Shown: positions 10,847 through 12,057 of the stretch, in pieces
Layout: each line of letters starts with the position of its first letter
Numbering within the stretch: the first letter of the stretch is position 1
Assembly (NCBI GenBank): GCA_039091855.1
Contig: JAWCLA010000007.1
Span: 15,415-28,152, forward strand
Direction of reading: 5' to 3'
Length of the DNA stretch: 12,738 bases
DNA from: Candidatus Aenigmatarchaeota archaeon
Lineage (GTDB): Archaea; Aenigmatarchaeota; Aenigmatarchaeia; QMZP01
Notes under the pieces: generated by a model
What the model was told of the DNA's origin: nothing
The model's database searches: none
Seen by the model: only the letters and a program-made list of their open reading frames with translations
Program-made: the position numbers and the translations under genes

Positions 10847-11227
10847 ATGGAATATATTAAGGACCCGGAGCTAGATGAAAGGGTTTTTGACATAGTCCAT
10901 AAGCTTGGGATGGAGCACATAAAATTACAGAGGGTTGTTTGCATAAGAAGCTATGGTTCAAAGAGCAGGAGAACGCTCGCCAGATGCCATGTTCTGCCAA
11001 AGATAATACAGGAAGCGCTGGGCATTAAGGCATATTATATAATAGAGGTAATATCAGAGAATTTCGACCGCCTCTCGTACGAGGAGCAGACAAAAGTCCT
11101 GATACACGAGCTTATGCACATACCAAAAACCTTCGGGGGTGGGTTCAAGTTCCACAACTATGTGAACAGGAAGGAAGTGGAAAAAATGTACAGGCTTTAC
11201 AAAAAATCAAAAGACTCTGCAATATAA
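10847..11227 (+). CDS. Putative zinc metallopeptidase-like protein, 126 aa
   Basis: YIIEVISENFDRLSYEEQTKVLIHELMHIP contains an HExxH motif typical of a small archaeal/phage predicted-metallopeptidase family. Confidence 0.85.
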   Translation: MEYIKDPELDERVFDIVHKLGMEHIKLQRVVCIRSYGSKSRRTLARCHVLPKIIQEALGIKAYYIIEVISENFDRLSYEEQTKVLIHELMHIPKTFGGGFKFHNYVNRKEVEKMYRLYKKSKDSAI

Positions 11228-11281: not shown

Positions 11282-11413
11282 CTACCTCTTCAGCATAGCA
11301 GCCCTTCTCTCGTTTGTTTCATATTTCTTGGTCAATCTTGTGATGTGCACATTCTGCATGATTCCCGGCTGCGGCTTTATGTCGGTCTTGGTAAGCTTCT
11401 TTGTTTTCGTCAT
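11282..11413 (-). CDS. Possible small basic protein, 43 aa
   Basis: ATG 11413; Lys/Thr-rich; no recognised family. Confidence 0.25.
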   Translation of the reverse strand: MTKTKKLTKTDIKPQPGIMQNVHITRLTKKYETNERRAAMLKR

Positions 11414-11456
11414 TATGTGGGCATTCCTTCTTTTCAGCGAGGTGAAATAGAGAATA

Positions 11457-11467
11457 TTTATTTTAAG
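11457..11467 (+). promoter_or_regulatory. TATA-like box of the tRNA-Gln gene
   Basis: TTTATTTTAAG located about 25-35 nt upstream of tRNA position 1. Confidence 0.55.
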
Positions 11468-11529
11468 CATTCCAATTAGTTCTAAGTTCATAGCCCGGTG
11501 GTGTAGTGGTCAAGCATGTCGGGCTTTGG

Positions 11530-11676
11530 ACACTTGGAAGGAAGTCGGAACAGAAACTTGTGTCTTTCCGCCTTCAAACTGAAGTTCCAAAGCTTTGAGA
11601 ACCCTGCAACTGAAGTTTTCCGTGAACGCTTTTGCGGAAGTGGAAACTCCTGTAAAAGGGTTCTGTGAAAGAGGAA
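11530..11676 (+). other. tRNA intron 1 (canonical position 37/38, 147 nt)
   Basis: Relaxed BHB: C32-U35 pairs with GAGG 11671-11674, with bulges GG|A and AA|A. Confidence 0.88.
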
Positions 11677-11697
11677 ACCCGACGACAGCGGTTCGAA

Positions 11698-11782
11698 ACA
11701 AAGGCTTTTTTGAAAAAAGCCTTTGGATGCCAAAAACCTTTACCTTAACTGTGATATTGGTTCATCTAACTGGAATCGATAA
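11698..11782 (+). other. tRNA intron 2 (T-loop, probably 59/60, 85 nt)
   Basis: Separates GGTTCGAA from TCCGCT. UCG(55-57) pairs with CGA 11777-11779, with bulges AA|A and AA|T. The junction is ambiguous by 1-2 nt because of the repeated AA. Confidence 0.82.
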
Positions 11783-11803
11783 TCCGCTCCGGGCTATTAG
11801 TTA

Positions 11804-11831
11804 GACGGCTTAAACCAATAAAAAAGCCGTC
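11804..11831. terminator. 8-bp inverted repeat between the convergent tRNA and wHTH genes; possible terminator or processing hairpin
   Basis: GACGGCTT (11804-11811) pairs with AAGCCGTC (11824-11831). Confidence 0.35.
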
Positions 11832-11835
11832 CATT

Positions 11836-12057
11836 TCATTCCTCTCCTTTTATTGCCCTTATTCCCCTCTGGGTTATCACAAAACAAGTTCCTAGGGACT
11901 CAACCTTTTCTATGTATCCAGAGTCCCTAAGCCTTTGCAATATGACATCCGTTCCGTTGCACTTCTCCTTGTTCAGGAAGTTCAGTATCTCTCCCTTTGT
12001 GACAAGAAGCTGTTTTGAGACAAGCTCCAGAACTTTCCTTTCCGGTTCCGAAAGCAT
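11836..12057 (-). CDS. Small winged-helix (wHTH) domain protein, 73 aa
   Basis: SD AGGTGA. Pattern LSEPERKVLELV...ILQRLRDSGYIEKV...ITQRG is typical of wHTH domains. Confidence 0.8.
   Translation of the reverse strand: MLSEPERKVLELVSKQLLVTKGEILNFLNKEKCNGTDVILQRLRDSGYIEKVESLGTCFVITQRGIRAIKGEE

Follow-up and report, generated by a model that had tools for sequence, protein, structure and literature searches.

The 12,738-nt stretch of a Candidatus Aenigmatarchaeota genome analyzed here (hereafter, the window) carries at positions 11492-11796 what is evidently a genuine tRNA-Gln(UUG) gene with a two-intron structure, and the longer of the two introns contains a conserved module that might guide 2'-O-methylation of the wobble nucleotide of the very tRNA that it interrupts. 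By coordinates, 73 nt of exon sequence are distributed over 305 nt as three exons and two inserts:

11492-11529 (+), exon 1, 38 nt: 5' strand of the acceptor stem, D-arm, 5' strand of the anticodon stem and loop positions 32-37, with the anticodon UUG at 11526-11528
11530-11676 (+), intron 1, 147 nt, at position 37/38: its excision restores the anticodon arm
11677-11697 (+), exon 2, 21 nt: position 38, 3' strand of the anticodon stem, a 4-nt variable region, 5' strand of the T-stem and T-loop positions 54-59
11698-11782 (+), intron 2, 85 nt, in the T-loop at 59/60: the boundary can slide to 57/58
11783-11796 (+), exon 3, 14 nt: T-loop position 60, 3' strand of the T-stem, 3' strand of the acceptor stem and discriminator A; CCA is not encoded

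When both inserts were excised in silico, ARAGORN recognized the 73-nt product as tRNA-Gln(ttg) with a full cloverleaf and all four stems, in agreement with the identity, anticodon, intron positions and intron lengths proposed in the initial annotation of this DNA. The spliced product has the features of a class I elongator tRNA, namely a 7-bp acceptor stem, D, anticodon and T arms, U8, G18G19, U33, a 7-nt T-loop starting with UUC and a discriminator base (stems according to ARAGORN, individual bases read from the sequence), and its G+C content is 63 % vs 40-48 % in the surrounding window. Excision of intron 2 yields the T-loop UUCGAAU, which is identical to the uninterrupted T-loop of the orthologs in genomes G033 and G003. 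Because of the repeated A's, the boundary of this intron can be placed at 57/58, 58/59 or 59/60 without any change in the product; the boundary of intron 1 can likewise slide between 37/38 and 38/39 with the product unchanged. In the unspliced window, ARAGORN detected 0 genes and Rfam 0 families at the gathering score, and lowering the Rfam threshold to E<=10 over positions 11400-11900 gave chance-level matches only (best E 4.4), so that the gene is indeed missed by standard annotation, as had been anticipated. Regarded purely as a gene structure, a tRNA gene with two introns in a DPANN archaeon is nothing out of the ordinary: multi-intron tRNA genes in a DPANN archaeon with a broad-specificity splicing endonuclease (EndA) have already been described (PMC3239211, PMC5829648).

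Comparison with the shorter orthologous introns of 45 nt in G004, 52 nt in G033 and 28 nt in G069 resolves intron 1 into a conserved core of about 50 nt and two inserted hairpin modules:

11536-11584 (+), insert 1: an extra hairpin module, with approximate boundaries from by-eye comparison with G033 and G004; the hairpin forms in the constrained fold
11587-11592 (+), anti-anticodon hexamer CCAAAG: complementary to loop positions 37 to 32, with A11590 pairing with U34
11595-11598 (+), D'-like box UUGA: two bases after the hexamer, with the fifth base upstream (11590) facing U34
11599-11663 (+), C-stem of a kink-turn (K-turn): 7 bp, 11599-11605 with 11657-11663, enclosing a dispersed repeat
about 11612-11664 (+), insert 2: a dispersed repeat element at the tip of the K-turn stem, with matches in 23 of 41 genomes at E<=0.001
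11664-11671 (+), UGU bulge, tandem-GA partner (11667-11668) and C'-like box GUGAAAG: from constrained folds and the ortholog scan

The 41 genomes referred to here and below are the relatives in the family and order. The core accordingly reads hexamer, 2 nt, UUGA, 7-bp stem, UGU bulge, GA, AAG. This is the predicted layout of a kink-turn, in which a canonical stem is joined to a 3-nt bulge with a final U and to tandem G-A pairs; read in another way, the same order of elements is that of a putative archaeal C'/D' motif, with guide, D' box, loop and C' box, and the placement of A11590 opposite U34 is that expected of such a guide. Thus, the core of intron 1 might represent a one-sided guide of the box C'/D' type directing 2'-O-methylation of U34, a reading which we regard as evenly balanced between right and wrong.

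The minimum-energy fold of the precursor is compatible with this reading. The unconstrained fold of the 305-nt precursor was not a cloverleaf and was set aside in favor of constrained folds, in which the cloverleaf stems were enforced. The constrained minimum, at -95.7 kcal/mol, is the guide-paired fold: the anticodon loop is paired with the hexamer (11587-11592 with 11524-11529) and the K-turn stem is formed, whereas a fold resembling the bulge-helix-bulge (BHB) splicing motif, at -90.0 kcal/mol, is 5.7 kcal/mol costlier. The region of the bulge, GA and C' box overlaps the h' strand of the BHB motif (GUG, 11665-11667) and a possible strand of its central helix H (AAAG, 11668-11671). Because the K-turn strand UGU-GA-AAG shares bases with these strands, the guide fold and the splicing fold are mutually exclusive. 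In G004, by eye, a 6-bp h' helix uses the same bases as the K-turn bulge and GA.

The module, which the initial annotation does not mention, is conserved among relatives. The tRNA-Gln(UUG) gene is present in 16 other genomes of Aenigmatarchaeota-like DPANN archaea, with exon 1 identity of 79-98 %; the exons are kept, and the inserts vary at the same sites. Altogether, 17 tRNA-Gln(UUG) genes from 17 genomes were parsed, the window gene included. An insert at 37/38 occurs in every one of them (28-147 nt, the window intron being the longest), a T-loop insert in 10 and a D-loop insert in 2. A scripted scan required, in this order, a hexamer in which 5 or more of the 6 bases pair, a 2-nt spacer, NNGA, either a stem of 3 bp or longer or a loop of 3-9 nt, and NNN-GA or RUGA. 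All 17 introns at 37/38 passed it, compared with 0.81 of 17 expected from shuffled introns. The sequence pattern of a K-turn or K-loop is found throughout, 14 orthologs having a stem and three a short loop. The D'-like box is UUGA in 10 genes, CUGA in 4, AUGA in 2 and UCGA in 1, and in G054 the boxes are AUGAUG and CUGA. The spacer between hexamer and box is 2 nt in 17/17, which places position 34 at N+5 in each case, and U precedes GA in all of the genes. Furthermore, the hexamer tracks the anticodon loop: CUUUGG loops are found with CCAAAG, CUAAAG or UCAAAG, UUUUGG loops with UCAAAA or CUGAAA, and CCUUGG loops with CUAAGG, with the one exception of G033, which retains CCAAAG. The sequences of the C-stem are unrelated between orthologs and its pairing is preserved. 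Two further orthologs that were not parsed, from G010 and G011, show the same module layout by eye.

Within the genome itself, 5 of the 21 anticodon-loop introns passed the scan, against 0.54 expected: those of tRNA-Trp(CCA), tRNA-Met(CAU), tRNA-Arg(UCU) and tRNA-Gln(UUG), with stems of 5-7 bp, and that of tRNA-Pro(GGG), a weak match. The tRNA genes other than tRNA-Gln(UUG) with convincing modules are located as follows:

contig C11, 12051-12349: tRNA-Met(CAU)
contig C1, 28195-28535: tRNA-Arg(UCU)
contig C1, 50942-50707, minus strand: tRNA-Trp(CCA)

In these three, the module consists of the anti-anticodon, 2 nt, AUGA, a stem, GAU or AGU, and GA, and it is aimed at position 34; in all four convincing introns, the distance from GA to the downstream 3' splice site is 10-12 nt. 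The tRNA-Trp intron is the classic case of an intron-borne guide and hence provides a built-in positive control for the scan. Among the intron-bearing tRNA(CAU) orthologs of the order, 15 of 18 passed, and the other three have, by eye, the same layout with a one-base offset.

A number of observations weigh against a guide function. The D'-like box is UUGA rather than CUGA, the C'-like box GUGAAAG fits the consensus RUGAUGA in its first half only (GUGA), and the pairing between guide and target covers 6 bp, or as many as 9 bp if G-U pairs and the first intron base are counted, compared with about 10 bp in a consensus guide. By eye, no second RUGAUGA/CUGA pair was seen in intron 1, which leaves one K-turn motif only; two motifs, C/D and C'/D', are the norm for archaeal guide RNAs. 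Given the single motif, the partial C' box, the UUGA and the short duplex, we classify the module as half-guide-like and not as a standard C/D small RNA (sRNA). Of the proteins involved, fibrillarin (286.5 bits; contig C37, 11355-12110, without a nop5 neighbor) and L7Ae (109.6 bits) are encoded, and no match to Nop5 (PF01798) was obtained in the assembly, which is 84 % complete; 37 of the 41 relatives have it, among them 3 of the 4 further genomes of the genus, and the same-genus genome G001 is also negative. The tRNA-Arg(UCU) orthologs pass the scan in only 3 of 9 cases, and in the four copies from the same genus the box is replaced by UCUA. In addition, the chance of a match in shuffled versions of this long intron alone is 0.18, and the orthologs are kin to one another, so that the agreement of 17 out of 17 amounts to conservation rather than to 17 independent events. 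Finally, against the splicing part of the explanation, neither splice motif is canonical in any register.

Some of these observations would be equally expected if the K-turn and the anti-anticodon were purely structural, with the binding of L7Ae or the pairing as such serving to fold or protect the long precursor, to mask the anticodon or to order intron removal, and with no methyl transfer. The single K-turn motif, the degenerate second half of the C' box, the short complementarity and the missing Nop5 all fit such a role, as do the same-genus tRNA-Arg(UCU) introns, in which the hexamer and the stem are kept and the box lacks GA, suggesting that the pairing can persist without a K-turn. However, a structural role would not require the invariant 2-nt spacing that keeps position 34 at N+5 in all 17 genes; the module recurs in the introns of tRNA-Trp and tRNA-Met, in which position 34 is a target of trans-acting C/D guides in Pyrococcus (PMC7994747); and 16 of the 21 anticodon-loop introns of the genome failed the scan. 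We therefore consider an exclusively structural function rather unlikely. Less plausible still is a functionless module, that is, an undecayed remnant of an ancestral intron combined with chance matches in other tRNAs. The common ancestry of the orthologs and the per-intron shuffle chance of 0.07-0.18 for long introns are consistent with this possibility, but the rest of the intron has diverged to lengths of 28-147 nt with unrelated hairpins, whereas the layout of the module has been kept, with compensating changes in stem and hexamer. Moreover, the intron was never lost from tRNA-Gln(UUG) (0 of 17 genes lack it), whereas anticodon-loop introns are often absent from tRNA-Gln(CUG) (no such insert in 7 of 12 genes); in the remaining five tRNA-Gln(CUG) anticodon-loop introns, no module was seen by eye. 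Taken together, these patterns make a functionless remnant improbable.

The genome encodes an enzyme that would be suited to the removal of both introns. Residues 16-408 of a 408-aa, three-unit EndA (contig C19, 129-1355) align with the epsilon2 enzyme of ARMAN-2 (4fz2) with an E value of 1.5e-97, so that the broad-specificity endonuclease called for by the initial annotation is present and belongs to the epsilon2 type. The stretches RIY, HS.H and SVKK of this protein align with their counterparts in 4fz2, and presumably include the catalytic Tyr, His and Lys. Relatives of the genome identified by means of the EndA protein carry the label Candidatus Aenigmatarchaeota (54-81 % identity), with Micrarchaeota more distant (39-43 %). 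In the available text of Kaneta 2018 (PMC5829648), the epsilon2 type is listed only for relatives of Micrarchaeum; here it is encountered in a genome whose relatives are labelled Aenigmatarchaeota. A second EndA is a 198-aa alpha-type paralogue (contig C12, 5287-5883). Its gene begins two bases past the end of a tRNA-Phe gene and adjoins a tRNA-Asn gene, and in the alignment it has Ala at the position of the reference's Lys in the SVRK stretch.

The splice sites were examined in the canonical register and in constrained folds, which assign two strands to the splicing motifs:

11671-11677 (+): 3' strand of the intron 1 H-helix, GAGG (11671-11674), and the 3-nt 3' bulge AA|A that holds the 3' splice site (canonical register, constrained folds)
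11776-11780 (+): 3' strand of the intron 2 central helix, pairing with T-loop positions 55-58, or with 54-57 including a U-U mismatch

Intron 1, placed in the canonical register, forms a central helix of 4 bp, of which two are G-U pairs; its 3' bulge is a proper one of 3 nt, but an adjoining h' helix is lacking, and its 5' site lies within a 3x3 internal loop, not in a bulge. An alternative register of intron 1 (H formed by CUUU/AAAG, h' by CAC/GUG) was rejected as less stable, at -86.7 kcal/mol, and as leaving a 6-nt 3' loop. Intron 2 in the canonical register forms three of the four central helix pairs and no h' helix. In its constrained fold, T-loop positions 55-58 pair with 11776-11779, the 3' site is in a 4-nt bulge beside the T-stem, and the 5' site is in a two-base stretch before a hairpin, in a multiloop and not in a bulge. 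Neither intron conforms to the strict hBHBh' motif with two 3-nt bulges and a 4-bp helix; both fit the relaxed class, hBH or bulge-helix-loop (BHL), as the initial annotation had maintained. Relaxed splice motifs are the norm in this genome, in which strict motifs in the canonical register occur in only 2 of the 21 anticodon-loop inserts and 7 of the 22 T-loop inserts. As neither motif of the tRNA-Gln(UUG) gene is canonical, cleavage is proposed by analogy with the ARMAN-2 enzyme, which in vitro cuts a strict intron at 37/38 and a relaxed hBH (BHL) intron at 59/60 (PMC3239211). By this analogy, both introns are very probably removed by EndA splicing.

The two introns belong to a much larger set. 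In the whole assembly, which is 84 % complete, 0 matches to RF00005 exceed the cut-off (the best scores 26.1 bits vs a cut-off of 29), and ARAGORN reports a single tRNA with default settings and four in its intron mode. We therefore relied on our own cloverleaf search, in which an insert of 10-313 nt was allowed in each loop; inserts inside stems are invisible to it. Some parse was obtained for 27,504 of 115,927 acceptor-stem candidates. Scores fell from 204 candidates at 16 to 57 at 17 and 13 at 18, beyond which stands a separate group of 28 candidates at 19-26; the tRNA-Gln(UUG) locus, with a score of 22, is above this falling background. After in-silico excision, ARAGORN called 23 of the 28 top candidates tRNA, and the addition of two lower-scoring genes with three inserts each brought the inventory, which is a lower bound, to 25 tRNA genes. 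All 25 are interrupted, with 49 inserts in all. Anticodon-loop inserts number 21 (13-208 nt, median 62), T-loop inserts 22, distributed over 22 of the 25 genes (14-124 nt, median 78.5), and D-loop inserts 6. Since the ranges of insert lengths within the genome extend to 208 and 124 nt, introns of 147 and 85 nt are not exceptional here, and their initial description as unusually long does not hold within this genome. The available text of PMC4090602 gives no length range for archaeal tRNA introns, and we do not claim 147 nt as a record. More generally, a genome that is 84 % complete and yields 0 tRNAs at the Rfam threshold and one in default ARAGORN illustrates that, unless multi-intron genes are searched for, tRNA counts used for quality assessment of such genomes or for inference on codon usage will be badly wrong.

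Two of the introns in this set show internal repetition. The 208-nt anticodon-loop intron of tRNA-Asp(GUC) (contig C18, 10354-10716) is built from a unit of about 66 nt that is present in three tandem copies, and an internal duplication is present in the tRNA(CAU) intron.

Many of the inserts are related to one another: 19 of the 49 have a relative in another tRNA gene at E<=0.001, and these fall into five clusters. Intron 1 clusters with inserts of tRNA-Ser(GCU), tRNA-Ser(GGA) and tRNA-Gly(UCC), and intron 2 with inserts of tRNA-Gln(CUG), tRNA-Arg(UCG), tRNA-Arg(UCU) and tRNA-Ile(GAU). The relationship of intron 2 lies in the following segment:

11699-11745 (+): shared intron cassette, a perfect hairpin (11699-11725) and about 20 nt, from sequence comparison within the genome

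Over 48 nt, the cassette shares about 90 % identity with the beginning of the T-loop intron in tRNA-Gln(CUG) on contig C37, and it is found also in the T-loop intron of the tRNA at contig C36, 2730-2470 (minus strand), in tRNA-Arg(UCG) and in the initial part of the anticodon-loop intron in tRNA-Arg(UCU). Both introns are composed of modules common to other tRNA introns, a point likewise absent from the initial annotation, and intron 2 is a member of a related intron family spread among the tRNA genes of the genome. We also considered the cassette as a candidate C/D guide and rejected it: the window copy has UUAA, and a search of the genome for complements gave scattered matches in coding regions only. 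Some copies of the cassette have CUGA, a short loop and AUGA-like boxes.

Of the two modules inserted in intron 1, insert 1 has no further copy in the genome (blastn). The repeat element that forms insert 2 occurs also in the introns of tRNA-Ser(GGA) and tRNA-Ser(GCU), in the opposite orientation, and the tRNA-Gln(UUG) intron of G026 has it at the same place and in the same orientation. In relatives, it is found inside tRNA genes, in 23S-like RNA, in tandem arrays with a period of about 40 nt and 3' of an open reading frame (ORF) flanked by a 13-nt direct repeat. Copies of this element of about 50 nt include G035:C4:10440-10551, G017:C69:1340-1387 and G008:C36:7019-7049; it resembles a small mobile element with a tolerance, or a preference, for the tips of intron hairpins.

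The sharing of inserts matches what was called intron transposition in Thermoproteales (PMC4033280). In this group, as summarized in the same source after Sugahara 2008 and Fujishima 2010, tRNA genes likewise have up to three introns, non-canonical intron positions and similar introns in different tRNAs. The differences are that Thermoproteales are a different phylum with an (alpha-beta)2 EndA, and that in the genome studied here anticodon-loop and T-loop introns exchange modules with each other, the element that they share being found in both orientations.

The presence of such common modules raises the question whether the locus might be a pseudogene, or hold mobile-element inserts that are not removed, with the CAA codons read by another tRNA. 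The modules shared with other loci, which both inserts hold, and the relaxed splice motifs are in line with that view. Against it, the exons form a flawless cloverleaf, the orthologs keep the exons while the inserts turn over, and a broad-specificity EndA is encoded; furthermore, with 25 of 25 tRNA genes interrupted, the same argument would leave the cell without tRNAs. A second tRNA-Gln(UUG), which the initial annotation had left as a possibility, was not found in the assembly: exon 1 occurs only once in its 689 kb (blastn), and no other UUG anticodon is present among the credible candidates of the genome-wide cloverleaf search. A pseudogene is hence hardly credible.

Two features that flank the gene could take part in its expression:

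11457-11466 (+): a TATA-box-like A+T-rich stretch, a possible archaeal promoter, about 31 nt 5' of the mature end (read from the sequence)
11804-11831 (strand not assigned): an 8-bp hairpin directly downstream, a possible terminator or another dispersed hairpin (read from the sequence)

The G004 ortholog has a similar A+T-rich stretch at an equal distance upstream. The downstream hairpin resembles one located just upstream of the tRNA-Gln(UUG) gene of G001 (locus L051, contig C102 of that genome, 17-46); the pair may represent a dispersed hairpin or a shared terminator.

The overall explanation that we favor, and consider probable, is a spliced two-intron tRNA-Gln(UUG) with an intron-borne guide. 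In this model, transcription from the A+T-rich element at 11457-11466 would yield a precursor of about 305 nt, in which the intron hexamer would pair with loop positions 32-37, the intron being either still in place or excised and acting in trans. L7Ae would bind the K-turn, Nop5 and fibrillarin would be recruited, and the wobble nucleotide U34 would be 2'-O-methylated. Because the K-turn strand overlaps the splicing strands, the RNA would have to refold before the EndA cut, and methylation is for this reason placed before splicing. After refolding to the relaxed bulge-helix motifs, the epsilon2 EndA would cut both introns (37/38 and 59/60), a ligase would join the three exons, and CCA, given that it is not encoded, would be added after ligation. 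In a broader form, the introns at 37/38 of tRNA-Gln(UUG) and tRNA-Met(CAU) across the order, and those of tRNA-Trp(CCA) and tRNA-Arg(UCU) in this genome, would be single-K-turn guides serving as enzyme cofactors, which bring L7Ae, Nop5 and fibrillarin to nucleotide 34 of their own tRNA for its 2'-O-methylation, and a switch from guide fold to splicing fold would set methylation ahead of splicing; for this generalization the arguments on the two sides seem to us to be of about the same weight. If correct, it would explain why these particular introns were never lost while others come and go, and the textbook case of tRNA-Trp would become one member of a family of half-guides carried by introns.

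The closest precedent is the archaeal tRNA-Trp intron, which guides the formation of Cm34 (PMC4090602, PMC11408192). Like the intron described here, it is located at 37/38 and contains a K-turn guide complementary to the anticodon loop of its own tRNA, with position 34 at N+5, and in this genome the introns of tRNA-Trp and tRNA-Gln(UUG) share one layout. The published guide differs in comprising both C/D and C'/D' motifs and a second guide for position 39, whereas the tRNA-Gln(UUG) intron has a single motif and targets U34. A 2014 review calls the tRNA-Trp intron guide a unique example (PMC4090602), and a 2024 review cites, in the text available, only the tRNA-Trp case (PMC11408192). The same nucleotide of the same tRNA, U34 of tRNA-Gln, is the predicted target of Pyrobaculum sR27, a trans-acting C/D sRNA (Lui et al. 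2018, PMC6009581), but sR27 is a free-standing sRNA with two motifs rather than a guide in the intron of its own target. In the limited literature collection that we searched, there was no report of an intron-borne guide in tRNA-Gln, tRNA-Met or tRNA-Arg. Hence, what appears to be new is a conserved, intron-borne putative U34 guide of tRNA-Gln together with its siblings in tRNA-Met, tRNA-Trp and tRNA-Arg. What tRNA introns are for and why some of them persist for very long is an old question; if the module works as read here, at least two more tRNAs, tRNA-Gln(UUG) and tRNA-Met(CAU), would have an intron that helps their own modification, and they would do so by means of a stripped-down, one-motif guide.

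With respect to gene architecture, the closest counterpart is ARMAN-2 (Candidatus Micrarchaeum acidiphilum; Fujishima et al. 2011, PMC3239211; 4fz2), with which the present genome shares the three-unit EndA, introns at 37/38 and 59/60, and the relaxed motif at 59/60. The introns tested in ARMAN-2 are of 13 and 25 nt and 56 % of its tRNA genes are disrupted, compared with 85 and 147 nt and 25 of 25 here; furthermore, ARMAN-2 belongs to the Micrarchaeota, whereas the lineage studied here is labelled Aenigmatarchaeota. Some Asgard families (bioRxiv 10.64898/2026.10.13.758758) are similar in that nearly all tRNA genes are interrupted, mostly with at least two inserts, and many are missed by standard callers, but there the missed inserts are mainly in the D-arm, whereas here T-loop inserts dominate (22 of 25 genes).

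The tRNA-Gln(UUG) gene is surrounded by ordinary housekeeping chromosomal genes, for arginyl-tRNA synthetase, a family-B DNA polymerase and a DJ-1/PfpI protein. The close relative G004 has the same upstream gene, and the locus is therefore orthologous. An antisense ORF of 81 aa over the tRNA gene has no Pfam match. In DNA contigs from four metagenome runs of hot springs, this locus is present without change in one or two contigs, and no intron-free form or insert polymorphism of it was present in these contigs. The intron-free tRNA-Gln genes of other community members in the same contigs match the window up to 11529-11531 and continue with the 3' half of the tRNA; since the match ends exactly there in the genes of other organisms, the boundary of exon 1 is placed independently.

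In six relatives, the near-universal U33 of tRNA-Gln(UUG) is replaced by C (loop CCUUGG): G080, G033, G051 and G012 (loci L063, L067, L070 and L039) and, by eye, G010 and G011 (L053 and L046). The intron hexamer has the matching G in five of these six genomes. Finally, about 270 nt upstream of the tRNA gene, the window encodes a 126-aa ORF (10847-11224, plus strand) that matches PF18894, 'putative phage metallopeptidase', with an E value of 1.5e-24.

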